Shown one piece after another: positions 6,679-27,991 of a DNA stretch of 64,000 nt. This DNA is from Candidatus Bathyarchaeota archaeon (GTDB lineage Archaea > Thermoproteota > Bathyarchaeia > Bathyarchaeales > Bathycorpusculaceae). The stretch covers positions 1-64,000 of the forward strand of contig CAVYNL010000033.1 of NCBI GenBank assembly GCA_963769845.1. The letters run 5' to 3'. A program made the translations under genes and the position numbers. Position 1 is the first letter of the stretch. Each line of letters starts with the position of its first letter. Under the pieces are notes generated by a model, which saw nothing but the letters and a program-made list of their open reading frames with translations, searched no databases and was not told where the DNA came from.

Positions 6679-6766
6679 CAGTGAAATCTCCTGTTGAATG
6701 GTTTGATTCAGAAGATTCACGGGAAAACGCTTTAATAACCTTATGCTCCTTTTTCACGTAAAAGTG

Positions 6767-8210: not shown

Positions 8211-8839
8211 CTCTCGATTATACATCTTGCTCTTTCAACTCCTTATGCTATTTAGCGCAAAAAAAGACTTTCTTGCACGGAAGTTGATCCGTCGCCTATG
8301 CTTTAAACCTATCTATTAGGGCGCGCCATAATGTCCAAGACTGGAGGTGTGGCGAGACTGCGTTTTCCTCGTTGCCGAAGACACAGCACTGCATCTTCTG
8401 CGCCGAATCGCCGGAATATTGTAAATACTCCATGCAGAGCGTAGTAGGCTCTTTCCGAGCTGCATATACATTTCGGACACCTCTTCAAAAAACCCAGATT
8501 TGAAGAATCATGATCAGCCAAGGCATGCTTCTCACGTGAGAGATCTCACTCAGGAGAATAGCGTTCTGTTCTCCGGTGCAATTCCTGCCAACTGCGAAGA
8601 TGCTCATGTGGATCTGACCCAAACCGGTCCATATGCTTCTTAAGATCCTCTTCTGAGCAGAAACGGCAAGAACAGAAGCGGCAATCAAGTTTTTGTTCTT
8701 CGCTTTCCACGCGGATCCCTTAAAGGGCAATCTGCTATAACACATTTAAACATTTGTTCATTTTCCAGCACGCGCTATTAAGAAGGTTTAAGAAGTGAGC
8801 CGAGATTCCTCTTGCTTCAGAAAAGGCTGGCAACGAAAC

Positions 8840-9256
8840 ATGAGCACAAATGTAACCACTATCCGACAGAAGACGTTAATCCCGGCTACTCCAAACGAGG
8901 TTTACGAAGCATTCATGGATTCAAAAAAGCATTCTGCCTTCACAGGAAGCAAAGCAAAATGTGATCCGAAGGCAGGAGGAGAATTCACGGCTTGGGACGG
9001 GTACATCTCGGGCAGAAACCTGGAGCTGGAGAAGGGAAAGAAGATAGTGCAAGAATGGTTGACATCTGAGTGGCCAGACGGTTATTCTCCTTCAAGACTG
9101 GAATTGACATTCAGGAAAGTGAAGGACGGCACCGAAATATCCATGGTTCATTCGAACGTGCCAGCAGAGCAGGCAGATGATATTGCAGAAGGATGGACAG
9201 AGTTCTACTGGAAACCGCTCAAAGAATACTTCACGAAACGAAAGCCCAAACAGTAG
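8840..9256 (+). CDS. SRPBCC superfamily protein (AHSA1 / activator of Hsp90 ATPase homolog-like)
   Basis: TIRQKTLIPATPNEVYEAFMDSKKHSAFTGSKAKCDPKAGGEFTAWDGYISG is typical of the AHSA1/SRPBCC fold. The start is taken at the internal Met (MSTNVTT). Confidence 0.7.
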   Translation: MSTNVTTIRQKTLIPATPNEVYEAFMDSKKHSAFTGSKAKCDPKAGGEFTAWDGYISGRNLELEKGKKIVQEWLTSEWPDGYSPSRLELTFRKVKDGTEISMVHSNVPAEQADDIAEGWTEFYWKPLKEYFTKRKPKQ

Positions 9257-9656
9257 ACAATACGCGAAACGAAAAAGAAAAACTGAGATTTTGCAGTTGA
9301 GCTCTCTTCTGGGTGTCCAATACACACGGGCATCATTGGTAAATTCTCGCCAGTCTAAATCACATTAGCAATTGTGGGAATGAGCACTTTATTCTTTCGT
9401 GCCTCACAAAGAACAGTTGCAGAGGAAGAGATTTCATGCTGGGGCAGCAAAAAATGTTGGATGTGAATTTGTATTCGGTGACTCTGTGCTTCTCGGAAGT
9501 GAAACTGGTACGACTGGCACTGTTGGAAAAAGGTTGGCAGCATCAGCTCAGCATGAAGTCTTGACAAGTCGAACCGTGCGGATGGGTCATCTTTCATTAA
9601 TCCTTAAATCTCGGGTTGCTTGTGTTGTTACACTGTGAAGAAGGGGGAAAATTGAG

Positions 9657-11057
9657 ATGGACTTCGACGTAGGAACGATAGCCGCGATTGTAGGCATAGC
9701 ATTCTTGGTTGTAGTTGTTGTTGTCTTCATCATTTCGAGAAGCTACACGGTTGTTAAGCCATCAGAGGCTCACATTGTTGTCAGACGCAAAGGCAGGAAA
9801 GTCTACAGTTCTAGGGAAGGACAGAGATCGGCATATTGGTATATCCCTTATATCATGCAAAGGTCTGTTCTGCCGCTGGAGAACATCAAGCTTGTGATTC
9901 CGAATATTCCCTTGAGAGACATTGACATGGCAAAGTTCGCTGGGGATGTCAGGTGCTGGCTGAACATTGAGAATCCTGACCTTGCAGCAGAGAAGTTGGG
10001 CAAGGTGGAAACTGAGGGAATGACAGGTTTCCCCGCGATACAGGCTGACGTCAAGGACCTGATTGAAGCTGTTGCAAGGAACTCTTCTATGAAGATGGAT
10101 GTCGTCAATATCATGAAGGACAGGGCCAAGTTTAGTCAGACAGTGAAGGATGAAGTGGCTCCAATCCTGAAGACTGAATGGGGAATAAAGATTGCAGGTC
10201 TAGAAGTCATCTACTTCAGAGACATTGAGAACTACACTGTCATCAAGGACATTGAGGCAAGACAGGCAAAACTGATCGAGACAGAGACGAGGAAGCAGTT
10301 GGCAGACTACGAGAAGAACGCAGCAATAGTTGAGGCCATTGCCAATCAGGAGAAAGAAACACAGAGAGCACAGGCAGAAGAGACATACAGGATCAGACAG
10401 ATTCAGAAGGACCAAGCTATAGGGCAAAGCGACCAGCAGAAACAGCAAAACATTGCAATGGCTACTCAAGAGGCTAATAAGCAGACTGTTGAGGCTAACA
10501 GACTCTTGACCGTAGGAAACGCTGAGATTGAGAAGCAGGCCGCCATAACCAGAGCAGATGGTGAAGCTCAATCCAACGTAAAGAGAGGGGATGGGACTGC
10601 TCAGGTGACGAAGCTGACGGGCTTTGCAGAAGCAGATGTCAGCAGGCAGAAACTGTTTGCCGAAGCAGAAGGCACTGAAAAGAAGGCATTGGCGCTCAAA
10701 CAGTACAATGAAGCAGGTCTGTCCTTGGAAGTCATCAGAGCGAATCAAGCCATCAAAGAAGCCCAGTTTGCCGCCCTCAGCGAAGGACTGAAAGTAGCTA
10801 AGATCAACCTTGTGACGAGTGGTGAAAGCAACATTCTGGGCATTCCTGTGAGCGCGGAGATGGGAGCAGACCTTGGAGCCATGCTGATTGCGTTGCAGAA
10901 TATGGGAATAGACATCACCGACCTTCTCAGAAAACTGCCGATAACCGAGACAGCCAAACTTGCCATAGCTGCAAAAGCAGGAATCAGCGTAGCCAAAGAA
11001 GGAACAAAAGAAGCAACCAAAGAAGCCCAACCTAAAGGCAAGAAGGGATCTGAATGA
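9657..11057 (+). CDS. flotillin / SPFH (band 7) domain protein
   Basis: N-terminal TM segment, then an SPFH domain, then a long coiled coil rich in E/A/Q (EAQ-type repeats), followed by a C-terminal region. 466 aa, typical of flotillin/YqiK. Confidence 0.85.
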   Translation: MDFDVGTIAAIVGIAFLVVVVVVFIISRSYTVVKPSEAHIVVRRKGRKVYSSREGQRSAYWYIPYIMQRSVLPLENIKLVIPNIPLRDIDMAKFAGDVRCWLNIENPDLAAEKLGKVETEGMTGFPAIQADVKDLIEAVARNSSMKMDVVNIMKDRAKFSQTVKDEVAPILKTEWGIKIAGLEVIYFRDIENYTVIKDIEARQAKLIETETRKQLADYEKNAAIVEAIANQEKETQRAQAEETYRIRQIQKDQAIGQSDQQKQQNIAMATQEANKQTVEANRLLTVGNAEIEKQAAITRADGEAQSNVKRGDGTAQVTKLTGFAEADVSRQKLFAEAEGTEKKALALKQYNEAGLSLEVIRANQAIKEAQFAALSEGLKVAKINLVTSGESNILGIPVSAEMGADLGAMLIALQNMGIDITDLLRKLPITETAKLAIAAKAGISVAKEGTKEATKEAQPKGKKGSE

Positions 11058-11320
11058 CTCAGATAGAACTCGACAAGCTCAGTCCAAGAGCTAAAGAACT
11101 ACTGGAAATCTTTGCAAAGACGAGCGGCGTGGCAGATCTCTCAATGGTCATTCAAGATGAAACCTTCAGCATCTTTGAACTCATGAAACTGATCGATACC
11201 ACAAGAGATCCAAAGATCTATCCACAGGACTCAGTACTTGTCTTCAACACGGTGAAAGCTGTGCTCGCGAAATTTAGCAGATTTGGGCAGCCGACAAAAT
11301 TGACAGAACAAGAGCCCTAA
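11054..11320 (+). CDS. hypothetical 88-aa protein translationally coupled to flotillin (ATGA overlap)
   Basis: Its start overlaps the flotillin stop codon. No recognisable motif. Confidence 0.45.
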   Translation: MTQIELDKLSPRAKELLEIFAKTSGVADLSMVIQDETFSIFELMKLIDTTRDPKIYPQDSVLVFNTVKAVLAKFSRFGQPTKLTEQEP

Positions 11321-11346
11321 CAATCTTCTCTTTTTTTGCGCGCGCT
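11321..11346 (+). terminator. T-tract (CTCTTTTTTTG) immediately after the stop codon, followed by a GCGCGCGCT palindrome
   Basis: Archaeal termination occurs at oligo-T tracts. A T7 run lies 10 nt past the TAA codon. Confidence 0.3.
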
Positions 11347-11535
11347 ATCAGCGTCCAATATGGGTTTGTTTGATGGCTAAATCTTGGTCGTGTTGAGAGA
11401 TGGTGAATCACGGGAGCTCCGCCTGATGGCCGGCGCGAAAAATGGTTGTGCACCTCAAAACCGCCCCAAAACCCCAAAAAAGAAATAAAAACCACTTTTG
11501 ACCATCTTAGGAACACGCATGCGCGCTATAATAGC

Positions 11536-11883
11536 ATGGTGACTTCAATGATCACGTATGAGGATTTCAGAAGAGTTGACATGCGAGTAGGCAGAATCTT
11601 AGAAGTGGAGCGTTTCCCAGAGGCAAGAAAGCCTTCCTACAAGCTGAAGATAGATTTCGGTCCACAGATAGGTGTAAAGAATTCCAGTGCCCAGATCGCA
11701 GGGTACAGGAAGGACGAACTAATAGGGAGATTAGTCATAGCCGTTGTCAATTTTCCTCCTAAACAAGTGGCCAACTTTCAGTCTGAAGTCTTGACTCTAG
11801 GAGTGGCAGATAAATCTAAGAAGAATAACTGGTTCTTGATAGAGCCTGACAGGGACGTAGATTTGGGTACCAGAGTAGAATGA
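11536..11883 (+). CDS. csaA: tRNA-binding protein CsaA/Trbp111 (EMAP/MetRS C-terminal-like OB fold)
   Basis: ITYEDFRRVDMRVGRILEVERFPEARKPSYKLKIDFGPQIGVKNSSAQI...RLVIAVVNFPPKQVANFQSEVLTLG is a classical tRNA_bind domain. Confidence 0.75.
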   Translation: MVTSMITYEDFRRVDMRVGRILEVERFPEARKPSYKLKIDFGPQIGVKNSSAQIAGYRKDELIGRLVIAVVNFPPKQVANFQSEVLTLGVADKSKKNNWFLIEPDRDVDLGTRVE

Positions 11884-12167
11884 CAGAAACCTTTCCGACG
11901 CACCCACGCCCAGAATCCCAAATGAGACCACGATCGAGCAAACGACCTTCGTTTCTTTCCTCAAAAATCAGGTTTGCGGGAGACGTCGCCACGCGAGTTC
12001 GCCCCAATCCCGAACCTGTGAATGCGTGCGTCCAAGGGTTCAAACGTGAGCTTTGACCTGTCGATCCCAGACAGTATCATGATCTGAGCAATCTCCGGTT
12101 TTTTAGGAGTATAGACGTCGCAGCACTAGCGACAAGAAATCCGAGAAATAAACAATATAAGACACAT

Positions 12168-12779
12168 ATGAGGCTTTCTTACGAATGCGCACATGGTTCA
12201 TTTGTCTCTTACAAAAGGGGATGGCGTCAACTGACGATAATTGTTGATGATGCTGGCATAGGTGATCTACTTTTTGGCGTCGTCATAGGCGCCTTTCGCT
12301 CCGAGACTCAGGAATTTAGATACGATATCGTAGATGTCGGATATTTCAGATATCCGCGATTCCGATCAAAAGAGTATCTGAAGCAGACTTCGAAAATTGT
12401 GTTTCAACTATTGAATAAACTTGAACTCAAGAAAGACGAACAAATTCAAATCTGCAAAGGCTACATCTTCGACGAAGCGGTAAACAGTTTGAAAGAGAGG
12501 TATGGCGACAATCAAATTGACAGAATCACAGTCACTGGAGAACCGCAGAGGCTTACAGAAATTGCATATCTCGACGAGATCAGAAACTTGGGGTATGAGC
12601 CAGTAAAAGACAGAGATGAGAAAAAGGCAAAGAGCTTCTTCCACATGATGAACTGGCTAAAGAAAAATCCAGAGAAACTGATCTATGCAAAGACTGGTTG
12701 GCCACGCCTGCAGAGATATGATCTATTCAGATCCTACTGTCAAAAACGATCAACAGAAGACAGAGAAATCAGTTCTTGA
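12168..12779 (+). CDS. hypothetical protein (203 aa). The N-terminal segment LTIIVDDAGIGDLLFGVVIGAF resembles an RNase H-like/YqgF-type glycine-rich beta-strand motif.
   Basis: ORF plus weak motif resemblance only. Confidence 0.35.
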   Translation: MRLSYECAHGSFVSYKRGWRQLTIIVDDAGIGDLLFGVVIGAFRSETQEFRYDIVDVGYFRYPRFRSKEYLKQTSKIVFQLLNKLELKKDEQIQICKGYIFDEAVNSLKERYGDNQIDRITVTGEPQRLTEIAYLDEIRNLGYEPVKDRDEKKAKSFFHMMNWLKKNPEKLIYAKTGWPRLQRYDLFRSYCQKRSTEDREISS

Positions 12780-12977
12780 ATCTGTATAGTGCACAATGGC
12801 ATTATACAATTAGCAAAAAGAGCTTGCCGAAGACATCTCTTTCGATGTGCTCGTGTAATGCATTACAGTCTGAGAGCGCGCGAGAGATTTCGCCGCCTGA
12901 TGGGGGCTCGGATCCCACTTTGCCCACCAAAAGCCTTGGATAGCATGTGCTGAGGTTGTGTCTGGCTTGATTGTCGT

Positions 12978-14225
12978 TCAAGTATTGTGAGACTTGATCT
13001 CGAGAAATCTGAATGTAGATTCGCAGGTAATGGCTTTCTTGGTTCTCCGATTTTCCTCCAGTCCCATTCTCATTCCCAGCACCCAGACTCCGATTCTTTT
13101 CTCTGACAAGGATTCTCGAGGAAAACTGATCAGACCCTCTTCGTTCTTGAATCGAGTCAACGTTTCCACAGATCGACTGTACCAGATGTGGTTTCTTGCC
13201 ACATTTGATCTGCCAAAGAGACCAAGCAGCAGAAGCAGCCTTCCAAACTCCATGCCTGAAAACTCGGACCCAAAGTATCCAGGCAAGTGGACGCTCCACC
13301 CCATCATGTAGTATCGTCCCGGCCCATGGCGGACTACTCCATATCCAACTCGAAGCTTCTGGTATTCTGAAGTCAGGATGAATTTGATGATGGTTTCAAC
13401 CTTGGCTCTGAGCGTTGCATCTTCCATTATGGATGGCGAGTGCAAGAAGGCATTCACGTCGTGTATCCAAGGCAGCTTCATCTCTTCATGAGGATAGATC
13501 TCAGGGTTCACCAGTGGAGCATTCCTGAAGGCCTTGGGAAAACCAGGGAACTTGTCTTGAGGAACATATACTCCTTTCAGATCGCCTTTCCTCGCAAACG
13601 GATAGATGGTTTCCAGCCGTCTGAGAACCCATGCCTTGACAGACTCATCATCCGCATATCCGGTCATGGTCAAAAAAGCGGAGACCAACGTGCGAAAGAA
13701 TACTGGGAGATACCCTTCCGCGGGGACGCTGATCTGTTGGTGCAACCATCGGAGAAACGGTTCAGTCTTGCGGTCCAAGATGGACATTCCTTTCCTCAGA
13801 CCAAACTCATACAGTTTTCCCATGACGTTCTCGTATGTTTCTGTTTTGGCACCATGCAACGCATTCCTTCCGCAATCTGGTCTCAGATTTCCCAGCCAAT
13901 ATCTCACAAGGTTACTTGACAAGAGATCCCTTTTTGCAGATTCAACCCCCTTCTTTTCATGAAGAAACTCCGTAGCAGTACGAAATCTAATAACCGAACC
14001 TGCATTGTCTACGAGCCAATCTGAATAATCTGTGAACTCCGCATCCCACACCAACCCAATCTGTGAACATTGTCCGAACTTAAGATTTTTGGCACGTATC
14101 AAAATCGGTTCCACAGTGACAAAACGGTCTTTGACGATAAAACAAGCAAACAAAAATGGGGGGTCGCGAGAGACATCGTCAATTGTCACGTTTCCAAGTG
14201 CCGGCGAGCCTGTCACGTGGCTCAA
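12978..14225 (-). CDS. hypothetical protein (415 aa), no recognisable family
   Basis: Long ORF with non-repetitive, non-low-complexity composition. It is convergent with 12168-12779. Confidence 0.5.
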   Translation of the reverse strand: MSHVTGSPALGNVTIDDVSRDPPFLFACFIVKDRFVTVEPILIRAKNLKFGQCSQIGLVWDAEFTDYSDWLVDNAGSVIRFRTATEFLHEKKGVESAKRDLLSSNLVRYWLGNLRPDCGRNALHGAKTETYENVMGKLYEFGLRKGMSILDRKTEPFLRWLHQQISVPAEGYLPVFFRTLVSAFLTMTGYADDESVKAWVLRRLETIYPFARKGDLKGVYVPQDKFPGFPKAFRNAPLVNPEIYPHEEMKLPWIHDVNAFLHSPSIMEDATLRAKVETIIKFILTSEYQKLRVGYGVVRHGPGRYYMMGWSVHLPGYFGSEFSGMEFGRLLLLLGLFGRSNVARNHIWYSRSVETLTRFKNEEGLISFPRESLSEKRIGVWVLGMRMGLEENRRTKKAITCESTFRFLEIKSHNT

Positions 14226-14340
14226 CTACTTATGACCTCTACTCTGGAGTCTTAGCGTGGTCTATTTGCAGAGGGAGCTGATGTGATTGGTCTCCGATAA
14301 CGGTTCAAATGGAGAAAACAGGGTTACGATTGCGTTAGGT

Positions 14341-14940
14341 TCATGTGCTTCTTGCGCTGATGTTTCTTCTATTCTTTGTTTTGAGGAGTTCAAGGGCTGC
14401 CGTCTTCGCTCCGAGTTCTGCCTTGATTTCTTCGTCTGCACTTCCGATTATTACGACGTCGCCGTCTTTCAGGTTCAGTTTTGACAGAGCGGCAAGGAGG
14501 GGGAAATCACCTTTTGACACGTTTTCCCCTATGCCCGGCATAGACAGCCCGTTCTTGGTAAAGATCAAAGTCGTGGCTCCTCTTGCTCCTGCCATTATTG
14601 CAGCGTCTCTCTGTTCCAGACCGTATTTCACTGAGTCCTTCATTCCTGCCACTCGGACTGCAACGTTGAAGGACCCGACCGTCAAGGACGTGGACGAAAT
14701 CTCTACTTGTTCGCTGAGGAGAGCTCTCAGACTACCAAGCAGTTTTCTTCCCGTTGCGGAGAGGGAAATCCCTGATTTTGAAACGTCGATCAGCCCTTCG
14801 TTCTTCAAATGCTTAACGAGAGTCCTGGCCTCGCCTTCACCCAACTGGAGGTCTTTTGAGAGTTTCATCCTGCCTACGGTCTGTTGGAGATTGATTTCTT
14901 CCAAAGCCTTGATCACGTGAGCCTCAGCGAACGAGGGCAA
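14341..14940 (-). CDS. winged-helix transcriptional regulator with a C-terminal uncharacterised domain (DUF4443-like)
   Basis: N-terminal wHTH (VIKALEEINLQQTVGRMKLSKDLQLGEGEARTLVKHLKNEGLIDV). The fully overlapping plus-strand ORF is S/P/A-rich low complexity and is rejected. Confidence 0.5.
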   Translation of the reverse strand: MPSFAEAHVIKALEEINLQQTVGRMKLSKDLQLGEGEARTLVKHLKNEGLIDVSKSGISLSATGRKLLGSLRALLSEQVEISSTSLTVGSFNVAVRVAGMKDSVKYGLEQRDAAIMAGARGATTLIFTKNGLSMPGIGENVSKGDFPLLAALSKLNLKDGDVVIIGSADEEIKAELGAKTAALELLKTKNRRNISARST

Positions 14941-15267
14941 CCGTCCAGGCGCGATTTTCGCCGAGACCTTGCTAACTGTTTCAAGCGGGTCCGTTCGTAT
15001 TCACCTCGCACACAGACCGTCATTGATTAGAAATGAAAACTCATGAACGTTTCCGAACTGGTGAACGAGACCCACGGAAGGCCTACAACGACGGGCAATC
15101 TTGCTCGCACAATCAACCGTTCTCAGGAATCCCACTGCCAACCATTCTCCAAACCACAGTGCTCGACTTGAACACAGATTCTTAGTAACAATTTACGCTT
15201 TTAAAACGTTTGAACGAGCAAGCTGTAAGAAAGAGATGAATGAGTTGCGGACAGAAGAGCAGCTGCA

Positions 15268-15792
15268 TCATGAAGGTGAAGTTGGCCAGGGGTTGTAGCT
15301 CTCGTATGAGAAGGCAACAGTATCTCCTCGATGAAGTATGTATTGCGAACATGAATAGCTCGGAGATACCCACGTCGAATTTTGCACGTCTCTGTACCAG
15401 TAGAACCATCCGTGCGCCATAGTATCGCCAGCTAGACCATTTATGGATGTGACCAGTATCCCCATAGTTCCTCCGTAGTCCTTGTACTCGACGTCCGATA
15501 CTGCAAGTATGGCCGTGAACGCTGTCGAACCGATAGGGAGCGCCGTGTTGTTAAACCATGCTCTCGTCCCGTTGCCGTAACTCAGGAGAATGTCGACCCG
15601 CAAGGCGAGGGGGTTGATCACACTCGAGAGGTTTCCCATCGTGTTTGAAAGCGTGTTCAAATCATTCAGCAGGTTTCTGTATTCATCTCGGTAGGTGGTG
15701 TATTGGGTGAAGTAGTAGCCAGCTATGGCGGTGCCGCTGACTGCCCAGACGAGAAAGGCCAAGATCACGTAGGTGAGAACTCTTTTTTCCAA
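15268..15792 (-). CDS. DUF4430-like secreted/membrane-anchored protein (a family found next to ECF/cobalamin-uptake S components)
   Basis: N-terminal TM anchor followed by a beta-rich domain. It overlaps the upstream membrane protein gene by 28 nt, suggesting an operon. Confidence 0.45.
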   Translation of the reverse strand: MEKRVLTYVILAFLVWAVSGTAIAGYYFTQYTTYRDEYRNLLNDLNTLSNTMGNLSSVINPLALRVDILLSYGNGTRAWFNNTALPIGSTAFTAILAVSDVEYKDYGGTMGILVTSINGLAGDTMAHGWFYWYRDVQNSTWVSPSYSCSQYILHRGDTVAFSYESYNPWPTSPS

Positions 15793-16340
15793 GTTTGTCC
15801 ACCTCCAAGAAGTCTTTGCAGAGCGTTTGTGATTGGGACGAAAGCTGCTCCGAAGACGACCGTGTTAGAGACAACATGTACCAAGCTGAACACAGCACCA
15901 GAAACGAGTGTGCTGACAAACGCTAGGAAAACGGGTTGGCCTGACAACCCAAAATGGACGGCCCACCCGAAATTGGTGACGACATCAAAAACGAGAGTAA
16001 GAAAAGCGCCCAAGACCGCCGTCTCAGCACACGACGCTGAGTCATAAGAGCCATGTCTCGAACGTCCGTACAAGCCGCCTCCTAGTCCAACCATGGCCAT
16101 CCCGATCATCTGAAATGGTGCGATCAGTCCAGCAAACCCCCAAGACGAAACAAATCCGTTGACAAACATCACCAAGACTCCCAGCCCACCACCGAAAGGC
16201 ATGCCGAAAATAGCACCAGCCAAGAAGACGATCAACGACGTAAACTCGACGTTCGGGGGCCGAGGCGCGAGTTGGACGCCTATGCACAGAGCAGCCAGGA
16301 CAACGAACGTTGAGAGGCGGGGAATCGTAAGGTTTCGCAC
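15765..16340 (-). CDS. ECF-transporter S-component-like small integral membrane protein
   Basis: 191 aa, about 6 predicted TM helices, Gly-rich (GMPFGGGLGVLV, MVGLGGGLYG). Paired with a DUF4430 gene, as in CbrT-type cobalamin S components. Confidence 0.45.
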   Translation of the reverse strand: MRNLTIPRLSTFVVLAALCIGVQLAPRPPNVEFTSLIVFLAGAIFGMPFGGGLGVLVMFVNGFVSSWGFAGLIAPFQMIGMAMVGLGGGLYGRSRHGSYDSASCAETAVLGAFLTLVFDVVTNFGWAVHFGLSGQPVFLAFVSTLVSGAVFSLVHVVSNTVVFGAAFVPITNALQRLLGGGQTWKKEFSPT

Positions 16341-16545
16341 AAAGTGTGGTTGGATAGTCCATCCATATAAGCCTTTCTCACCACGGATACTGTAAACTCA
16401 TCTGTCATGACTTTTCCAGCTTACAGAATGTTAGTGGTGCATTTGTCAGTTTTGTTTTCTAATTGTGCCTTGGTTTTTCCCTTTGCTTCAGAATACGCAG
16501 AAAACCTGATTCAGATGTTGTCTTTATGGGTTCTTTGATTATTCC

Positions 16546-16555
16546 TTTGTTCTTA
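16546..16555. repeat. AGCGCGCGCT palindromic decamer, intergenic within the AT-rich islet
   Basis: Exact match. Confidence 0.9.
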
Positions 16556-16570
16556 GCGCGCGCTCGGATT

Positions 16571-17149
16571 CTATGTTTCCATGGTAATGGAAAACAGGAT
16601 TCGTCTTCTTGTGTTGAGAACGAAATTGACGACGATTTTGGCGTGAATACCTATTATGGTTGCGAGACTAGCAATTAGAGAGATTATTAGCTTGGATATT
16701 TCAGAAGATAGCATTTTCAGTTTAAGTGTGGCTGTTCGTCCGAATTTTTGTTTTTCTGAGATTGTCTTTTCTCTCGGTCTCCTTATTTTGTTAAGAAGCC
16801 ATGATAGAAATTTCGTTATTGCTTTTTTAATATCATTTTCGTCAGACATGTAGCCGTAATAGTCTATGACCCTAACTACAAAAACCGTAAATGTTGTAAT
16901 TCCAAAAGTCCAAGTTTCTGCGGTATGCCAGCCTATTTGGTCAGAAGTTTGTGGTTTTTCTACAACAATTGGTGGAGAGCAATCAACCTTGAGAACGTAA
17001 AAACTGCTGAAAACGCTGACCAAAGTTATGGCTAAGACTATGAAAACAACGACAGACTTGACTATTCTCGATGCTTTGAACGCATCATTTTCCATTTTTC
17101 CATCAAACGTAGATGAGCGAGCTCCTATTAATGTGTTTACGACTGTCAC
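16571..17149 (-). CDS. hypothetical membrane protein within an AT-rich islet
   Basis: ORF with 2-3 hydrophobic segments. The surrounding 16400-17250 region is markedly more AT-rich than its neighbours. Confidence 0.35.
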   Translation of the reverse strand: MTVVNTLIGARSSTFDGKMENDAFKASRIVKSVVVFIVLAITLVSVFSSFYVLKVDCSPPIVVEKPQTSDQIGWHTAETWTFGITTFTVFVVRVIDYYGYMSDENDIKKAITKFLSWLLNKIRRPREKTISEKQKFGRTATLKLKMLSSEISKLIISLIASLATIIGIHAKIVVNFVLNTRRRILFSITMET

Positions 17150-17271
17150 TTTTGGTTATAAAGAGGGGTTTTTTGCTAGCGTGTGCGTTATGACAGATAA
17201 GTTTACAGTATCGCTGTTACGAATAGTTCATAAATGACTTCCTGAAAACTAGTGTTCCTGAGCTGTGTCAC

Positions 17272-18204
17272 ATGGAAAGTTATGAATTGATAATCATCGG
17301 CGCTGGTCCTGCTGGTTTGGCGGCTGGGATTTATGCCGTTAGAAGCGGGTTGAAAACGCTTGTTCTTGAGGAGAAGATGGCCGGCGGGACCGTGGCCGAT
17401 GCTCCAATGGTTGGGAACTATCCGGGTATTCAGGACGCAAAGGGCAGCGAGATTGCACAGAAGATCCACGCGCATGCAAAGAGCGCGGGCGTGAAGGTTA
17501 ACGAGTTTGAAAGTGTCGAGGGCCTGAAGCTTTCGGCGGATAGAAAAGTAGTGAAGACTCAGAAGACAGAGTACGAGGCCAAGACAATAATTATCGCGTC
17601 GGGTAGCCATTATCGTGAGCTGGGAATTCCAGGTGAGAAAGAGTTTCGCGGAAGGGGCGTGAGCTACTGCGGCATCTGTGACGGCCCGTTCTTCAAGGGC
17701 AAGCGTGTGCTCGTTGTGGGCGGCGGCAACTCGGCCTTGATGACAGCGCTCTATCTTGCACATCTTGCTGGAGAAACAAAGGTTGTGCACAGGAGAGAAA
17801 CGTTTCGGGCTGAGGAGGTGCTTGTCCAAGAACTGAAGAAGTTGAGAAACACGGAGGTTCTCTGGAGCACCGAAGTTAAAGAGATCGTAGGTGACAAGGT
17901 CGTCAAGAAAGTCGTCGTACTTGACAAGAAGGACAATAGAACGAGAGAGGTGCCGGTTGACGGCGTTTTCGTGCAGGTAGGCGAGTCGCCCAACAGTCAA
18001 TTAGCCAAAGAGGCGGGCGTGGCCGTTGACGAGGATGGCTATATTAAGATAGATTGGCTTCAGCACACGAACATCGCTGGCGTGTACGCCGCTGGAGACG
18101 TCACAAATCATCCGGTCAAGCAGGTGGGCACGGCTGTCGGGCAGGGCATAACTGCGGCCCTGGAGGCATACGGCTACATTCGAAGACCATATTACAAACA
18201 GTAG
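17272..18204 (+). CDS. trxB: thioredoxin-reductase-like FAD/NAD(P)-dependent pyridine nucleotide-disulfide oxidoreductase
   Basis: IIIGAGPAGLAAGIY (FAD GxGxxG), redox-active SYCGICDG, NAD(P) GxGxxA (VLVVGGGNSA), C-terminal YAAGD. Confidence 0.8.
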   Translation: MESYELIIIGAGPAGLAAGIYAVRSGLKTLVLEEKMAGGTVADAPMVGNYPGIQDAKGSEIAQKIHAHAKSAGVKVNEFESVEGLKLSADRKVVKTQKTEYEAKTIIIASGSHYRELGIPGEKEFRGRGVSYCGICDGPFFKGKRVLVVGGGNSALMTALYLAHLAGETKVVHRRETFRAEEVLVQELKKLRNTEVLWSTEVKEIVGDKVVKKVVVLDKKDNRTREVPVDGVFVQVGESPNSQLAKEAGVAVDEDGYIKIDWLQHTNIAGVYAAGDVTNHPVKQVGTAVGQGITAALEAYGYIRRPYYKQ

Positions 18205-18301
18205 AAAACATGCCAAAACCATTATATTTTCCCGAACCCACGAAGCAACGTCTAGAGTATCGTGTTCGCGCTTATCTACCAGCATTGGAGAAGTCTGGCG
18301 A

Positions 18302-19513
18302 ATGACTGAAAGTTGTGCAGCCGCAGTAACGATCAACCAGGACCTTTGCAGTAAGTGCTCCATTTGCCATTCAATCTGTCCCTACGAAGCCATCAAGCGG
18401 GACCAGGAAACTGGTAAAGTTGAGATTGACTTGCAGAAGTGCCAGGTCTGCGGCATATGCTACAGCGCCTGCCCGTCCATGGCGATCGAGATCAAGTATT
18501 ACGATTATGACAGCCTCGTGAAGCTCGTCAAGGAAATGCATGAGAAGTGCGACAGCGACACGCTCGTTCTGATGTGCAGGGGCAACTCGCCCTCAACCTG
18601 CGAGGTCCAAGAGATGCTGGAAAAGGAAGGCTTGAACGTCAAAGATTACATTCCGTTACGATTACCGTGCGCGGGACGGGTGCCCTCCGAGTTCGTGTTC
18701 AAGGTCCTGAAAGCGGGCATCAAAAGGGTCATCTCGATCCAGTGTGAGGACAAATACTGCAGGTATAAGGAAGGCACGAGGATTGGCAACAGGCGGATGA
18801 CGCTGGGCAGAGCCGTGCTGGAGCAGTTCGGCCTCAGCAAAGACGCGTTCAAGGTTGTGAGATACTCTCGGAAGGTCGTTTATGACACTTCCAAGTGCGT
18901 GGGCTGCGACAAGTGCGTTTTCATATGCCCGTACAAGGCGATCGAGGCTGAACCGTTTGCCACGCCCAACGTGCTTTTCGACGATTGCATGGGCTGCGGC
19001 GCATGCGCACTGGTCTGTCCGCACCAGGCGATCGAGGTCAAGGGCTTCGAGTTCGAAACCGTGCTCAAGCGCTACGGGGAAGCGGCGACGAAACTGAAGG
19101 CGCAGGGCAAAAGCCCAATCATCCTGGTTTTTGTATGTCAGTGGTCAGAGTTCTCGGCGTTGGACCAGCCTGAGAGGGAATTGCTGAAGAAGAACGCAGT
19201 GACCCTGGAGGTTCCATGTTTCAAGGCCCTCGACCCTGTACACGTGGTTAACGCGTTGCAGAGCGGTTTTGACGGGGTCATGGCCGTGGTGTGTGCGCCT
19301 GAGGATTGTAAGCTTCAGGAAGGCAAGGAGACGGCTGAAAGAAACGTTGCCGTTCTGAAGAACGTGTTGAAAAAGCTGGGGCTGCTGAACCGTTTCGAGC
19401 TCTTCTATGCTTCGCCGAGGTGCATGGGCGACTTCAACCAGAAGCTGGAGGAGTTTTACAGGAGAATTGCCGTGTTGCCATCGTTGAAGATGGAGGTGAA
19501 GGTGCGTGTATGA
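18302..19513 (+). CDS. duplicated module protein: [2x4Fe-4S ferredoxin + MvhD-like domain] x 2
   Basis: Two ferredoxin pairs (CSKCSICHSICP/CQVCGICYSACP and CVGCDKCVFICP/CMGCGACALVCP). Each is followed by an MvhD-like Cys pattern (LVLMCRGNSPSTC...LPCAGRV...IQCEDKYC and ILVFVCQWSEF...VPCFKAL...VVCAPEDC). Confidence 0.8.
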   Translation: MTESCAAAVTINQDLCSKCSICHSICPYEAIKRDQETGKVEIDLQKCQVCGICYSACPSMAIEIKYYDYDSLVKLVKEMHEKCDSDTLVLMCRGNSPSTCEVQEMLEKEGLNVKDYIPLRLPCAGRVPSEFVFKVLKAGIKRVISIQCEDKYCRYKEGTRIGNRRMTLGRAVLEQFGLSKDAFKVVRYSRKVVYDTSKCVGCDKCVFICPYKAIEAEPFATPNVLFDDCMGCGACALVCPHQAIEVKGFEFETVLKRYGEAATKLKAQGKSPIILVFVCQWSEFSALDQPERELLKKNAVTLEVPCFKALDPVHVVNALQSGFDGVMAVVCAPEDCKLQEGKETAERNVAVLKNVLKKLGLLNRFELFYASPRCMGDFNQKLEEFYRRIAVLPSLKMEVKVRV

Positions 19514-20345
19514 GATACTGAAGAAAAGAGAGCTTGCGCCCAAGATCAAGTGGTTTGAGGTCAGAGCGCCCGAGATGGCTGAAAAAGCAAAGCCCGGCCA
19601 GTTCATAATAGTGGTAATCGACGAGAAGGGCGAACGCGTGCCCTTGACGATAGCTGGCATCGACCCGAAGAAGGGCACCGTGAGCTTCGCGTTCAACGAG
19701 GTCGGCAAGACAACGAAGCAGCTCGGATGCATGAAAGAGGGTGACAGCATCTGGAACGTCACTGGACCGCTTGGTGTGCCGTCGGAAATCAAGAAATACG
19801 GCAAGGTCCTGTGCGTCGGCGGTGGCGTGATGATCGCGCCCATGCTGTTGCAGGTCAAGGCCCTTCGAGAGGCAGGCAACTCGGTTGTGAGTGTTGTGGG
19901 CGCGAGGATCAAGGAACTGCTGTTCTTCGAGGACGAGGTCAAGGCTTTGAGCGACGGCTTCTACGTGGCGACGGATGACGAGTCGAGAGGCTATAAGGGC
20001 TTAGACTTCCTGAAGGGCGTGCTTGAGAAGGAACGGTTTGACAGGTGCATCGTGTATGGGCCGGTTGTAATGATGAAGGATGTCTCGGAGATCACGCGAC
20101 CTTTCAGCATTCCGACGGTTGTGAACCTGACGCCGATCATGATTGATGGCATGGGAATGTGCGGCGTGTGCAGAGTTTCTGTGGGCGGCAAGATGAAGTT
20201 CGGTTGTGTGGACGGGCCAGAGTTCGACGGGCACAAGGTGAATTTTGACGAGCTGGTGAACAGGCAGAGGATGTTCCTGCCAGAGGAACGGTTGAGCTCG
20301 ATGCTGTGGGAGAGGCAAGGAGGATGCGGCTGTGGCGGAAAGTAA
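19506..20345 (+). CDS. nfnA: NfnA/SudB-like subunit (PyrK-type FAD + [2Fe-2S] electron-transfer subunit)
   Basis: FeS motif CGVCRVSVGGKMKFGCVDGPEFDG and NAD/FAD-binding region VLCVGGGVMIAPM. Its start overlaps the upstream gene by 8 nt. Confidence 0.8.
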   Translation: MYEILKKRELAPKIKWFEVRAPEMAEKAKPGQFIIVVIDEKGERVPLTIAGIDPKKGTVSFAFNEVGKTTKQLGCMKEGDSIWNVTGPLGVPSEIKKYGKVLCVGGGVMIAPMLLQVKALREAGNSVVSVVGARIKELLFFEDEVKALSDGFYVATDDESRGYKGLDFLKGVLEKERFDRCIVYGPVVMMKDVSEITRPFSIPTVVNLTPIMIDGMGMCGVCRVSVGGKMKFGCVDGPEFDGHKVNFDELVNRQRMFLPEERLSSMLWERQGGCGCGGK

Positions 20346-21747
20346 GCCGAAGCCTAAGCTGAAGAAAGAAGCCGTGCCGATGCCTAAGCAGGCACCGAAA
20401 GTGAGAAGAGAGAATTTTGAAGAGGTGGCCACGGGCTACACGGAACAGCAGGCACTCGAAGAAGCAAGCCGCTGCCTGCAGTGTCCGAAACCACAGTGCG
20501 TGACGGGATGCCCCGTGGGGATCTGCATTCCAGATTTCATCAAACTACTGCGAGAGGGAAAGTACGAGGAGGCCATTCAGAAGATCAAGGAAAAGAACGC
20601 GCTGCCAGCCGTCTGCGGAAGAGTGTGTCCGCAGGAAGAACAGTGCCAAAAAAAGTGCATTATGGGAAAAGTCGCTGAGCCAGTGAGCATAGGCAGGCTT
20701 GAACGATGGCTCGCAGACTGGGAAAGAGAAAAGGGGGTCAAAGCACCTGCCAAAACTACATCTACTGGAAAGAAAGTTGCCGTCATCGGCGCCGGTCCGG
20801 CTGGACTGACGGTCGCGGCTGAGCTCGCCAGGCTGGGGCACAAGGTAGTCATGTACGAGGCGCTACATCTGCCAGGCGGCGTGCTGATCTACGGCATCCC
20901 CGAGTTCCGTCTGCCCAAGAGCATCGTTCGGTCCGAGGTGGACTACGTTCAGAAACTGGGAGTCGACCTGAACTTGGGGTATCTGATAGGGAGGATACAC
21001 ACGATTCCCGAACTGCTCAAACAGCGCGGGTTCGACGCGGTTTTTATCGGGACAGGAGCGGGGTTACCGGCGTTCATGGGCTTGCCGGGAGAAGGCCTGG
21101 GAGGTGTCTATTCTGCCAGCGAGTTCTTGATCAGGGTCAACTTGATGAAGTCTTACGCGTTTCCAATCTATGATACGCCCATCAGGGTCGGAAGGCACGT
21201 TGTGGTCATAGGCGGCGGGAACGTGGCGATGGACTCTGCCCGGTCTGCACTGCGTCTGGGCGCTGAAGAAGTCTGTATTGTCTACAGGCGCTCCAGAGAG
21301 GAAATGCCCGCGAGGAAGGAGGAGATCGAGAACGCGGAGGAGGAGGGAATACTCTGCAAGTTCTTGGCCAACCCGACAAGGTTTGTTGGTGATGAGAAGG
21401 GCTGGGTGAAAGCAATGGAGTGCGTCTGCATGGAACTCGGACCACCAGACGAATCAGGCCGAAGGAGACCTGCACCCGTCAAAGGATCAGAGTTCGTGAT
21501 GGACACAGACACGGTGATAGTCGCTGTTGGAAGAAGCCCCAACCCAATAATACAAAGCACCACAGAAGGACTAGCGGTGACAAAGTGGGGAACCATAATG
21601 GCAGATGACAACGGCAAGACGAACATCGAAGGAGTCTACGCTGGCGGAGACATAGTAACGGGTGAAGCCACCGTCATAAGCGCCATGGGCGCAGGCAAAA
21701 AAGCAGCAAAAGCAATACATGAATACTTGATGACCTGCAAATCCTAG
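20332..21747 (+). CDS. nfnB: NfnB/SudA/GltD-like subunit (NAD(P)H:ferredoxin oxidoreductase large subunit, 2x[4Fe-4S] + FAD + NAD(P))
   Basis: CLQCPKPQCVTGCPVGICIP and CGRVCPQEEQCQKKC, then VAVIGAGPAGL...VVVIGGGNVAMD...GVYAGGD. 471 aa. Overlaps nfnA by 14 nt. Confidence 0.85.
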   Translation: MAESKPKPKLKKEAVPMPKQAPKVRRENFEEVATGYTEQQALEEASRCLQCPKPQCVTGCPVGICIPDFIKLLREGKYEEAIQKIKEKNALPAVCGRVCPQEEQCQKKCIMGKVAEPVSIGRLERWLADWEREKGVKAPAKTTSTGKKVAVIGAGPAGLTVAAELARLGHKVVMYEALHLPGGVLIYGIPEFRLPKSIVRSEVDYVQKLGVDLNLGYLIGRIHTIPELLKQRGFDAVFIGTGAGLPAFMGLPGEGLGGVYSASEFLIRVNLMKSYAFPIYDTPIRVGRHVVVIGGGNVAMDSARSALRLGAEEVCIVYRRSREEMPARKEEIENAEEEGILCKFLANPTRFVGDEKGWVKAMECVCMELGPPDESGRRRPAPVKGSEFVMDTDTVIVAVGRSPNPIIQSTTEGLAVTKWGTIMADDNGKTNIEGVYAGGDIVTGEATVISAMGAGKKAAKAIHEYLMTCKS

Positions 21748-25985: not shown

Positions 25986-26834
25986 CTATTGCACCTTCTC
26001 CATAGCTTTCTCGTTAATCTTCGAGATCTTCTCATGCAATAACTTCTCGTAACTTAGCTTTTCAATGTCCACAAACTCGCCCACCGCAATCCTGTCCTGC
26101 GAAATGTCCGCCTTAGCCGGGTCAGAAAAATTCTCAACAACTGAAGCCCGCTTGAACCAGTCCATCATCTCCAGCCCAGAGCGCATCTTGTTCTGCCTGC
26201 CGAAAATCTCCGGACACGGCGACAGCACCTCCACGAAGCAGAACCCCTCCTTCTGCAACAGTTTCTTGATAGACTGCGTCAGCCTACGCACATGCAGAGT
26301 CGTCCACCTCGCCACATAAGTCGAGCCTGAAGCAGCAGCCAGATGCACGAGGTTAAACGGATGCTCCACATTCCCATAAGGGCTCGTCGCAGTAATCGAA
26401 TCCAAAGGCGTCGTCGGTCCCTGCTGCCCACCGGTCATGCCATAATTCAAATTGTTAACGCAGATCACCTTCACGCCGATGTTCCTCCGCGCCGCATGGA
26501 TGAAGTGGTTGCCACCGATGGCGAACAGGTCACCGTCACCACTGACAACGACGACCTCCAACTCGGGGTTCGCGAGCTTCACGCCTGTGGCGAACGCTAA
26601 TGCCCGTCCGTGCGTCGTGTGGAAAGAATCAGCGTACGTGTACCCAGCCGTGCGTCCGATGCAGCCGATTCCCGAGACTATCACAAGCTTGTCCAGGTCA
26701 GTCTTCAACTCGTCCAAAGCATGGACGAAACAGTTCAAGACAATGCCGTTACCGCAGCCTGCACACCAGATGTGCGGCATCATCTCCGCTCGAAGATACT
26801 TCGCAAACGGATGAACCAATTCTTGCACCATCAA
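25986..26834 (-). CDS. korB: 2-oxoacid:ferredoxin oxidoreductase beta subunit (TPP-binding)
   Basis: WCAGCGNG...GIGC...SGDGD is a TPP-binding beta subunit motif. Confidence 0.9.
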   Translation of the reverse strand: MMVQELVHPFAKYLRAEMMPHIWCAGCGNGIVLNCFVHALDELKTDLDKLVIVSGIGCIGRTAGYTYADSFHTTHGRALAFATGVKLANPELEVVVVSGDGDLFAIGGNHFIHAARRNIGVKVICVNNLNYGMTGGQQGPTTPLDSITATSPYGNVEHPFNLVHLAAASGSTYVARWTTLHVRRLTQSIKKLLQKEGFCFVEVLSPCPEIFGRQNKMRSGLEMMDWFKRASVVENFSDPAKADISQDRIAVGEFVDIEKLSYEKLLHEKISKINEKAMEKVQ

Positions 26835-27991
26835 CTACTCCTCCTGATAGACTCCAATATTTCCAGAGGCGTGTGCGGCTCCTCCCCAAGCTTCCCCAGA
26901 AAAGAGACAGGAGTCTCCTTAGCTGCCCGCTCAACCTCACGAACAAGCTGCCCACAATTCATCTCTGGAACAACAATCTTCTCCGCCTGTTGCGCAACCT
27001 TGGCCACTTGCTTCTCGGGGAAAGGCCACAAAGTGATAAGCCGCAACAGTCCAGCCTTGATGCCCTTCTCCCGCGCTTTTCGAACTGCGCTTAACGCGGC
27101 GCGTGCAACGATGCCGTAGGCGACAACAACCACGTCCGCATCGTCCAGCATCACTTCTTCTACCCTGATTATCTTGTCAGCGTTCTTGCCTATCTTTTCG
27201 CACAGCCTTCGAACCAGCCTCTGCTGTACTTCGGTGCTCGAAGTCTTCGGAAAACCATGCTCATCATGCGTCAGACCCGTCGCGTGAAAACGATACCCCT
27301 CACCGAAACAGGCCATCGGCGGAACCAAGTCAGCATCAGGCAGGAACGGCTCATACTCCTCACGCGGCACGTTCGGCTTCTTTCGATTCAAGGTCCTGAT
27401 CTTGTCCCCGGCTGGAATCGTCACCTTCTCCCACATGTGCCCCACAATCTCATCCGCCATCAACAACGTCGGCACACGATAAGTCTCAGCCAAGTTGAAT
27501 GCCTCAACAGTCAGATTGAACATTTCCTGCACAGAACTGGGCGTCAAAGCGATGATCCCATAATCCCCATGCGAACCCCACTTCGCCTGCATGACATCCT
27601 GCTGCCCCGGCATAGTCGGCTGACCCGTACTCGGACCGCCACGCATAACATCCACAACCACACACGGCGCTTCAGTCATTACTGCCAAACCGATGTTCTC
27701 CTGCATAAGACTGAAACCCGGACCCGACGTGGCCGTCATGGCTTTCAAACCACTGTAGGAAGCACCTATGACGGCGGCCATCGACGCAATTTCGTCCTCC
27801 ATCTGAATGTATATCCCGCCGATCTCCGGCATCCTCAGCGACAAATGTTCAGCAATCTCTGTAGCTGGCGTAATCGGGTAACCAGCGAAGAACCTGCAAC
27901 CAGCCGCCAAGGCGCCTTCCGCGCAGGCAACGTCACCGTTCATGAAATGCGGGCCGCTCAAAGCGTTCCTAGTCTTAGTCATGTTTACCAC
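26831..27991 (-). CDS. korA: 2-oxoacid:ferredoxin oxidoreductase alpha subunit
   Basis: GDVACAEGALAAGCRFFAGYPITPATEI...SGPGFSLMQE is a Por/Kor alpha signature. Overlaps korB by 4 nt (ATGA). Confidence 0.9.
   Translation of the reverse strand: MVNMTKTRNALSGPHFMNGDVACAEGALAAGCRFFAGYPITPATEIAEHLSLRMPEIGGIYIQMEDEIASMAAVIGASYSGLKAMTATSGPGFSLMQENIGLAVMTEAPCVVVDVMRGGPSTGQPTMPGQQDVMQAKWGSHGDYGIIALTPSSVQEMFNLTVEAFNLAETYRVPTLLMADEIVGHMWEKVTIPAGDKIRTLNRKKPNVPREEYEPFLPDADLVPPMACFGEGYRFHATGLTHDEHGFPKTSSTEVQQRLVRRLCEKIGKNADKIIRVEEVMLDDADVVVVAYGIVARAALSAVRKAREKGIKAGLLRLITLWPFPEKQVAKVAQQAEKIVVPEMNCGQLVREVERAAKETPVSFLGKLGEEPHTPLEILESIRRSS

Follow-up and report, generated by a model that had tools for sequence, protein, structure and literature searches.

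A tandem ferredoxin-MvhD protein adjoining NfnAB in Bathyarchaeia: a conserved gene core and its candidate redox partners

Background

What role could an iron-sulfur protein built twice over from ferredoxin and MvhD-like domains play beside the flavoenzyme NfnAB? This question is raised by a locus (17272-21747) on a 64-kb stretch of archaeal DNA, called the window here and always meant at its full length, which encodes ribosomal protein S3Ae (Pfam) and whose proteins have their named homologues in Bathyarchaeia. For the tandem ferredoxin-MvhD protein encoded at 18302..19513 we have coined the name FdMvhD2. Bathyarchaeia are among the most abundant archaea of anoxic sediments and soils, and their energy metabolism is largely deduced from genomes. 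MvhD is known as the [2Fe-2S] connector by which electrons of MvhAG or FdhAB reach HdrA, and it also belongs to MetFV-HdrABC-MvhD (PMC6085437, PMC9012536). The conservation of Mvh and Hdr genes in non-methanogenic archaea has been regarded as puzzling (PMC10667645).

The first-pass annotation of the locus had placed four genes in one operon, and it had proposed that the duplicated ferredoxin-MvhD protein acts as an electron wire between Nfn-like and Hdr-like modules. Comparison with related loci leads to a somewhat different picture, in which FdMvhD2 is constant while the genes beside it vary (Mvh, Hdr, MetVF, Nfn). FdMvhD2 may well be an adaptor subunit of NfnAB, with an Mvh-type hydrogenase as the best candidate for its partner.

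A conserved three-gene core

The features of the locus are the following:

17272..18204, plus strand: trxB-like gene for a low-Mr thioredoxin reductase (TrxR), 310 aa (Pfam Pyr_redox_2, 1e-50)
18205..18301, plus strand: spacer between trxB and fdmvhD2, 97 nt
18302..19513, plus strand: fdmvhD2, encoding FdMvhD2, a predicted tandem of [2x(4Fe-4S) ferredoxin + MvhD-like (2Fe-2S)], 403 aa (Pfam)
19506..20345, plus strand: nfnA, small subunit, PyrK-like, predicted to hold flavin adenine dinucleotide (FAD) and [2Fe-2S], 279 aa, GTG start (DHODB_Fe-S_bind)
20332..21747, plus strand: nfnB, large subunit, GltD-like, predicted to hold 2x[4Fe-4S], FAD and NADPH, 471 aa, GTG start

The open reading frames (ORFs) are exactly those first annotated: fdmvhD2 and nfnA overlap by 8 nt (19506-19513), nfnA and nfnB by 14 nt (20332-20345), and the spacer of 97 nt agrees with a TrxR-like gene lying about 100 nt upstream.

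The neighbourhood was compared in a genome scan with one genome per species; it yielded 107 relatives, and 80 loci were retained. Almost all carry the label Bathyarchaeia or Bathyarchaeota, and the few with other labels were taken as mis-binned contigs. The fdmvhD2 gene is followed by nfnA in 78 of the 80 loci and by nfnB in 77, the misses being contig ends. Spacing between fdmvhD2 and nfnA has a median of -1 nt and is below 50 nt in 76/76 cases; between nfnA and nfnB the median is -14 nt, again with less than 50 nt in all cases (72/72). The genes that lie 3' of nfnB in the window, encoding a DUF362 protein and seryl-tRNA synthetase (SerRS), show no conservation at the relatives' loci. Because the spacing is tight, the contiguity constant, the downstream neighbours unconserved and trxB loosely linked, we consider fdmvhD2-nfnA-nfnB to be the selected unit, and since the gene order recurs at all 80 related loci the arrangement is far beyond chance. 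The annotated operon stands for these three genes, contiguous in the 80 loci wherever the contig is long enough, and not for trxB. It had been foreseen that a ferredoxin-MvhD gene never co-occurring with nfnAB elsewhere would speak against a functional link; in close relatives the two are always found together.

Going farther, a search of 1.8 billion representative proteins gave 47 representatives with E <1e-30, including full-length two-unit proteins at 32-44% identity. A set of 40 metagenome loci was found with a single protein, P0128, as query, and every one of them with enough sequence contains fdmvhD2-nfnA-nfnB, at 40-52% identity to the FdMvhD2 of the window.

The genes beside the core change between lineages

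Concerning hydrogenases, two Bathyarchaeia genomes (L053 and L059) have the order trxB-mvhG-mvhA-fdmvhD2-nfnA-nfnB, and a third locus (L038) shows the same in fragmented form; within the 13-kb locus no separate mvhD is present in any of the three. In L087 and at the P0128 locus the hydrogenase genes follow the core instead, as fdmvhD2-nfnA-nfnB-mvhG-mvhA(-hycI), and L109 and L112 carry fdmvhD2-nfnAB-mvhD-mvhG. L091 has fdmvhD2-nfnA-mvhG-mvhA, without nfnB. Together with L089, described below, hydrogenase genes occur in the relatives L038, L053, L059, L087, L091, L109 and L112. The large subunit of these hydrogenases is of the MvhA type, as it matches 5odc_F at 2.7e-120 and the sulfhydrogenase alpha subunit at 1e-28. 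A hydrogenase outside the window as the real partner, an outcome that the first-pass annotation had named as telling against its proposal, is nearly what the relatives show, but the enzyme belongs to the MvhA type and not to the HydGB or sulfhydrogenase type.

Hdr genes join the core in other places. In L089, from a distant lineage, an hdrA-mvhD gene ends 6 nt before trxB-fdmvhD2-nfnA-nfnB, and the locus also contains a convergent mvhG-mvhA-hdrA/mvhD-hdrC-hdrB cluster. At the P0130/L084 locus, which belongs to the MetVF sister contexts described next, the genes directly after fdmvhD2 are a double hdrA (about 1000 aa) and mvhD; metV lies close downstream, and metF lies upstream in divergent orientation. 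The same double hdrA and mvhD accompany P0126 (L082/L083), where metVF is not on the contigs. For most of the 80 genome loci there is no Hdr gene within 6 kb.

A third group has fdmvhD2-metV(-metF) in place of NfnAB (P0124, P0127, P0129 and P0138). In L130 (3774-8828) fdmvhD2-metVF is directly followed by the [NiFe] hydrogenase genes hydS-hydL, beside genes of carbon monoxide dehydrogenase/acetyl-CoA synthase (CODH/ACS), and this cluster may encode an H2-linked reductase of a methylene-C1 carrier that works without HdrA. In L114 metV comes right after nfnB. Sister clusters with MetV/MetF, of the methylene-tetrahydrofolate reductase type, were also seen in L128, L129 and L081.

One metagenome contig, L108 (2656-15763), holds an unusually dense set of bifurcation-type modules. 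First on it comes a NuoF-like protein, then an NfnB-like domain joined to a NuoG-like N-terminus; these are followed by FdMvhD2-NfnA, by a molybdopterin protein resembling formate dehydrogenase and by another NfnA-NfnB pair.

Domains and cysteines of FdMvhD2

The tandem architecture that had been read from the sequence is borne out by Pfam, which finds four Fer4 stretches and two FlpD/MvhD stretches (PF02662, 1e-38). An alignment of the two halves covers 169 residues with 28% identity (E 2e-21), and for this reason the duplication is judged to be genuine and old. FdMvhD2 contains 16 ferredoxin cysteines and four more in each MvhD half (C92, C123, C148 and C153 in the first, C279, C306, C331 and C336 in the second), 24 in all, and every one is invariant in 82/82 orthologues. 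The same 24 are also kept in family members whose identity to one another or to the FdMvhD2 of the window is as low as 29-41%. Because these cysteines are invariant across the family, both halves appear to be under selection as cluster carriers.

A confident AlphaFold2 (AF2) model of FdMvhD2 has a predicted local distance difference test (pLDDT) score of 82.9 and a predicted template-modelling (pTM) score of 0.81. Foldseek returned as best solved matches of this model the MvhD chains of Hdr complexes (5odc_D, 8rvu_F and 7bkb_F), with target TM-scores of 0.78-0.83, and no solved structure in that search spans the whole architecture (query TM-score <=0.29). The two PF02662 stretches, the model and the Foldseek matches together place the MvhD modules in the MvhD fold. 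FdMvhD2 departs, however, from the usual form of MvhD, which is a stand-alone protein of about 140 aa or a C-terminal fusion to HdrA, encoded with mvhAG/hdrA. Concerning the ferredoxin units, a PDB sequence search found them similar to the ferredoxin domain at the C-terminus of HdrA, the acceptor of electrons from MvhD (PMC9012536). The same search also gave matches to the polyferredoxin-like proteins FwdF and MvhB.

NfnA and NfnB

Fer4_20 (5e-43) and Pyr_redox_2 (2e-37) are the Pfam domains of NfnB. The closest solved relatives of NfnB, over its full length, are Thermotoga maritima NfnB (4ylf_B, 2e-176, 590 bits) and Pyrococcus furiosus NfnI (5jca_L, 1e-164). According to Huang et al. (PMC12221290), three features set NfnB apart from monofunctional Fnor: an extended N-terminus, a pair of arginines close to the bifurcating FAD, and nfnA as the gene immediately upstream. 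All three are found here: the N-terminus is extended, as the alignment begins at residue 8-11 of this NfnB where the references begin at residue 2; R193 (EFRLPK) and R328 (PAR) correspond to R201 and R333 of P. furiosus NfnI (PfNfnI) and are, like CPQE, invariant in 80/80 orthologues; and nfnA lies immediately before nfnB.

NfnA has its best solved matches in the small subunit of PfNfnI (5jca_S, 2e-85) and in T. maritima NfnA (4ylf_A, 8e-76). It is farther from the NAD-independent P. furiosus paralogue NfnII/Xfn (5vj7_B, 2e-55), and with the sulfhydrogenase gamma subunit (9nez_C) the match is as low as 1.4e-12. The Asp/Cys3 motif for the [2Fe-2S] cluster is present (D-G-M-G-M-C-G-V-C...C), its Asp being kept in 74/74 orthologues (D-G-x-G-x-C-G-x-C). 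The nucleotide motif of the window protein is GGGV, as in NfnI and T. maritima NfnA, where Xfn has GAYTG and most orthologues have G-G-S; specificity is not legible from sequence alone.

The first-pass assignment of the pair to NfnA/NfnB is upheld. A HydGB/sulfhydrogenase reading was rejected on the gamma-subunit match (1e-12 vs 2e-85 for NfnI) and on the MvhA type of the relatives' hydrogenase, and a GltD reading on sequence evidence, the best solved relatives being T. maritima NfnB and PfNfnI. On sequence criteria NfnAB is a canonical member of the NfnSL family, whose typical enzymes are heterodimers with free ferredoxin as third substrate and an NADH-dependent Fd:NADP+ activity; the third coupled gene hints at another quaternary make-up here.

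The NfnA of the window ends in GGCGCGGK (20319-20342), and a tail of the form GGC(K/A/S)CG(R/G) is kept in most bathyarchaeial orthologues of the window's lineage; the reference chains (PfNfnI and T. maritima) extend only 4-6 residues past the aligned region. This Cys-x-Cys tail could be redox-active or metal-binding. We considered it as a general trait of FdMvhD2-linked NfnA and rejected this, as distant clusters lack it and only the window's lineage has it.

The thioredoxin reductase gene

The best solved relative of the TrxR is that of Methanosarcina mazei (4zn0_A, 3e-75), whereas the ferredoxin-dependent FFTR/DDOR types match at about 1e-39 to 1e-43. The window protein has the motifs CGICDG and HRRETFR; among orthologues CxxCDG is found in 64/64 and the NADPH-type HRRxxxR, the 2'-phosphate motif, in 55/64. 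From these data we classify gene 1 as a classical low-Mr NADPH thioredoxin reductase, with FAD and NADPH Rossmann domains and a redox-active CxxC.

In 71 of the 80 genome loci trxB lies upstream of fdmvhD2; the two never overlap, and the gap between them is at least 50 nt (median 111 nt). Unrelated genes stand between the two in several genomes (for a surface protein, a major facilitator superfamily (MFS) transporter and an F420-type oxidoreductase), and trxB is missing from most distant fdmvhD2-nfnAB clusters, although it still heads the cluster where mvhGA is inserted. The idea that trxB is an integral member of the operon was downgraded in view of its own spacer, the unrelated insertions and its absence from most distant clusters. 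It is a frequent, loosely attached neighbour of the core.

In the window, the spacer contains TTATATTT at 18222-18229, and the start codon of fdmvhD2 follows 73 nt downstream. As a pattern match it could be an archaeal TATA box candidate, giving the three-gene core a promoter of its own.

Hdr genes and other features of the window

Two HdrA-MvhD fusions had been reported from the window and both are there, one of them interrupted:

4315-6720, minus strand: hdrA-mvhD fusion, 801 aa, intact (Pfam)
6743-7885, plus strand: hdrD-like gene, divergent from hdrA-mvhD (Pfam)
28284-30796, minus strand: second hdrA-mvhD fusion, split by a +1 frameshift near 30091-30095

The first pair (4315-7885) is a possible partner module of the core. 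It lies 9.4 kb from trxB in the window, and in the closest relatives it ends about 0.8 kb upstream of trxB (L003, L006, L007 and L070) or about 3 kb upstream (L001). The region between hdrD and trxB (7886-17271) has a GC content of 0.46-0.49, against 0.55 for the nfn genes, and contains an SPFH/Band_7 gene (9657-11057) and several ORFs without a Pfam match; it is possibly an insertion.

The second fusion consists of the ORFs 30050-30796 and 28284-29966, with one extra G after ...DCSICIL, the frame resuming at +1, and it represents either a pseudogene or an error of sequencing or assembly. Just before it on the same strand, a gene of 474 aa (30723-32147, minus) encodes an HdrC-like N-terminus (residues about 20-104, 5e-16) fused to an NfnB/GltD-like FAD/NADPH domain, whose NfnB-like part matches the large subunit of PfNfnI at 4e-77. 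This gene is the first of a run on the minus strand that also includes the frameshifted HdrA-MvhD and the alpha and beta subunits of a 2-oxoacid:ferredoxin oxidoreductase (25986-27991), and it is a second, distinct Nfn-like/Hdr-like hybrid of the window.

At the edge of the window (22-909, minus) there is an integrase/transposase gene with an rve core and helix-turn-helix (HTH) domains. Two long ORFs, 58839-61967 (plus, 1042 aa) and 43520-44890 (minus, 456 aa), have no Pfam match, and the 1042-aa product is without a record in the gene-position collection.

Proposed function and alternative explanations

We consider it moderately probable that FdMvhD2 is a third, dedicated iron-sulfur adaptor subunit which joins NfnAB to MvhD-dependent partners, best an Mvh-type hydrogenase, with HdrA as an alternative or additional one. 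The core unit consists of the three translationally coupled genes fdmvhD2, nfnA and nfnB. By sequence NfnAB is a genuine NfnSL-type enzyme, in which NADPH would act at the bifurcating FAD, in NfnB, and NAD(H) at the other FAD, in NfnA. The clusters of FdMvhD2 would be four of the [4Fe-4S] and two of the [2Fe-2S] type; its ferredoxin modules would form an electron wire into NfnAB, and its two MvhD modules would offer points of docking and transfer for an Mvh-type (group 3c) [NiFe] hydrogenase and/or HdrA-type flavoproteins. The full assembly would link H2, or else an Hdr module, by electron exchange to the pools of NADPH, NADH and ferredoxin; for example H2 with NADH or reduced ferredoxin could drive the reduction of NADP+, or the reverse reaction could take place. 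The NADPH so made might feed the neighbouring TrxR, and this use fits because the CxxC and HRRxxxR motifs are kept. In this organism the partner could be encoded elsewhere, could be the nearby HdrA-MvhD/HdrD, or could be absent. Going beyond the gene identities, the conserved motifs, the strict synteny and the changing partner genes of the relatives, we infer that a complex is formed, where NfnAB is entered, which partner is used here, and the reaction with its direction.

Concerning the point of entry, electrons could arrive at the [2Fe-2S]/FAD side of NfnA, H2 thereby replacing NADH, and three observations favour this: the invariant adjacency of fdmvhD2 and nfnA, the L091 cluster without nfnB and the analogy with the beta-gamma module of sulfhydrogenase. 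Entry at the ferredoxin site of NfnB (the distal [4Fe-4S]), where H2 would replace reduced ferredoxin, is equally possible. As to the partner, the Mvh hydrogenase appears to be the better-supported class and Hdr the second candidate, because mvhGA joins the clusters repeatedly and does so without another mvhD in the L053-type loci. Of the electron wire first proposed, the idea of an adaptor fits well and some Hdr proximity exists (L089 and the closest relatives), but Hdr is not singled out as the partner here and the comparative context agrees better with an Mvh hydrogenase.

Several points weigh against this interpretation and should be considered together. The 64-kb window has no hydrogenase gene, and mvhGA lies within 6 kb in only 3/80 genome loci; in most Bathyarchaeia, that of the window included, the partner must either be encoded elsewhere or be nonexistent. 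Both HdrA copies of the window carry a fused MvhD of their own. Both MvhD halves of FdMvhD2 have another residue in place of the second Cys of the canonical CNWC motif, which makes the type and the potential of their clusters uncertain. Fusions that join FdMvhD2 to NfnA or NfnB were not found, so that it is gene order that argues for their physical association. The NfnAB enzymes of T. maritima and P. furiosus consist of two subunits and use free ferredoxin, so that Nfn chemistry can do without a third one.

A more specific form of the proposal can be offered only tentatively, and we regard it with some doubt. In it MvhAG-FdMvhD2-NfnAB would be an HdrA-independent, H2-linked bifurcating or confurcating complex, with MvhAG-FdMvhD2-MetVF as its sister, and the core in Bathyarchaeia like that of the window would draw on a hydrogenase or Hdr module whose genes lie elsewhere in the genome. 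The first complex would couple the low-pressure H2 of sediments with NADH or reduced ferredoxin to form NADPH, or run in reverse, and in the second H2 would reduce methylene-tetrahydrofolate or methylene-methanopterin.

The alternative that survives best, although we think it unlikely, is that FdMvhD2 wires NfnAB to HdrA-type modules, in a composite of Nfn and Hdr with two bifurcating flavins and no hydrogenase here. It would account for the hdrA-mvhD/hdrD genes close upstream of trxB in L001-L007 and L070 and at a greater distance in the window, for the hdrA-mvhD gene that nearly abuts the cluster of L089, and for the distant fdmvhD2 homologues that directly precede double-HdrA genes. The HdrC/NfnB-like fusion beside the second HdrA-MvhD of the window and the HdrA-NfnB fusions of ANME-1 (PMC9012536) point in the same direction. 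However, it is unclear why two more MvhD modules should be needed by HdrA proteins which already have their own; moreover the Hdr adjacency is limited to L089, L102 and one close sub-lineage and is lacking in most of the 80 loci, and the distant lineages more often carry Mvh genes in the cluster.

It is also conceivable, but quite improbable, that FdMvhD2 is a built-in ferredoxin or polyferredoxin which replaces the soluble ferredoxin of NfnAB, its MvhD-like domains simply adding clusters and no outside partner being involved. Such a role would suit most bathyarchaeial loci, including that of the window, where the three genes stand alone with no partner gene nearby, and polyferredoxin-like proteins do go with other oxidoreductases, as the matches to FwdF and MvhB recall. 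What it leaves unexplained is that the MvhD fold and the four cysteines persist in both halves although the neighbours switch between Mvh, Hdr, MetVF and Nfn, and that the L053-type hydrogenase has no other MvhD in its locus.

That the TrxR is the true partner, FdMvhD2 passing electrons of NfnAB or ferredoxin to the TrxR flavin for an NADPH-independent reduction of thioredoxin, must be rated as highly improbable. The frequent position of trxB at the head of the cluster, retained even with mvhGA inserted, would be in keeping with it, and on HdrA the docking site of MvhD is an FAD domain with the fold of thioredoxin reductase (PMC9012536). The conserved NADPH motif and the closer match to 4zn0 than to the FFTR/DDOR types speak for an NADPH enzyme instead, and the intervening genes and the missing trxB of most distant clusters are difficult to reconcile with a dedicated partner. 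Least probable of all is that no functional complex exists and the genes are neighbours through shared regulation or phylogenetic inertia within one archaeal class. In its favour, the 80 loci are all from one class, so that the synteny counts are not independent events. Against it, both junctions are kept with their start/stop overlaps in all loci measured, and the adjacency holds down to about 40% identity while flanking genes are unconserved.

Novelty and significance

The claim of an undescribed composite has held up so far, although provisionally. No description of a ferredoxin-MvhD gene linked to nfnAB was found in the openly searchable literature, which includes a review of Nfn distribution (PMC6405883), a survey of bifurcating enzymes (PMC6085437) and genome papers on Bathyarchaeia, subscription-only literature lying outside the search; one study of Bathyarchaeia simply counts sud/nfn genes (PMC11631310). 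The composite is real and conserved, and it is apparently undescribed.

An Nfn module with two MvhD connectors gives a testable hypothesis of how electrons from Mvh or Hdr could enter the balance of NADPH, NADH and ferredoxin, and it suggests a way in which Bathyarchaeia wire H2 and NADPH metabolism together. If true, it would represent a new quaternary form of Nfn, structurally the simplest bifurcating enzyme, and a new class of MvhD partner beyond HdrA. The MetVF sister clusters suggest that FdMvhD2 could be a general modular adaptor.

Comparison with known systems

With NfnAB of T. maritima and P. furiosus the locus shares close homology (2e-176 and 2e-85), the cofactor motifs, the FAD arginines and the overlap of nfnA with nfnB. 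It differs in that a third iron-sulfur gene is coupled upstream, as in every relative, where the characterized enzymes have two subunits and free ferredoxin, and in the extra C-terminal Cys-x-Cys tail of NfnA in the window's lineage.

The MvhADG-HdrABC (5ODC) and Fdh-Hdr (7BKB) complexes have in common with it the MvhD fold, the HdrA-like ferredoxin modules and, in the clusters of relatives, the MvhA-type hydrogenase. Here, in contrast, MvhD is fused to ferredoxin and duplicated, the flavoenzyme is NfnAB (or MetVF) and not HdrA, and the core module is without a disulfide reductase of the HdrBC type.

A connector of the MvhD type that joins the flavoprotein MetF to another redox module is known from MetFV-HdrABC-MvhD of Moorella thermoacetica (PMC6085437), and sister FdMvhD2 proteins likewise adjoin MetV/MetF. 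However, HdrA is the hub of that complex, while hdrA is absent from the FdMvhD2 clusters L053, L087 and L130, and the connector here is a two-unit ferredoxin-MvhD fusion. In FlxABCD-HdrABC of Desulfovibrio a connector of the MvhD type likewise links the PyrK-like FlxA, through iron-sulfur proteins, to another redox module, with HdrA as the hub. The HdrA-NfnB fusions of ANME-1 (HdrA9-11; PMC9012536) are a precedent for combining an NfnB-type NADPH flavin with modules of the Hdr/MvhD type, but there NfnB is inserted in HdrA and NfnA lies outside the fusion, whereas the present locus has a full NfnAB and a separate adaptor.

Sulfhydrogenase I (group 3b, alpha-delta-beta-gamma; 9NEZ) resembles the proposed assembly in its plan of a hydrogenase dimer, an iron-sulfur connector and a PyrK-like subunit that binds FAD, [2Fe-2S] and nicotinamide, and the L091 layout (fdmvhD2-nfnA-mvhG-mvhA) recalls it. 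The sequences are nevertheless remote, NfnA matching gamma at 1e-12 and the hydrogenase matching alpha at 1e-28 vs 3e-120 for MvhA; for FdMvhD2 the PDB sequence search gave no match to the beta subunit, whereas gamma was picked up with NfnA and alpha with the hydrogenase. NfnABC/StnABC (Bfu-type; 9N5U, 8OH5) also has three subunits and an NfnB-like NADPH/FAD domain, but its extra subunits are NuoF/NuoE/HydB-like with flavin mononucleotide (FMN), it has neither an MvhD domain nor a PyrK-like NfnA, and its architecture is unrelated. We classify the cluster as neither a sulfhydrogenase nor a Bfu-type NfnABC/Stn; in its proposed function it comes closest to Mvh-Hdr, MetFV-HdrABC-MvhD, FlxABCD-HdrABC and the HdrA-NfnB fusions of ANME-1. 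It brings known modules together in a new, conserved combination and is not a categorically new system.

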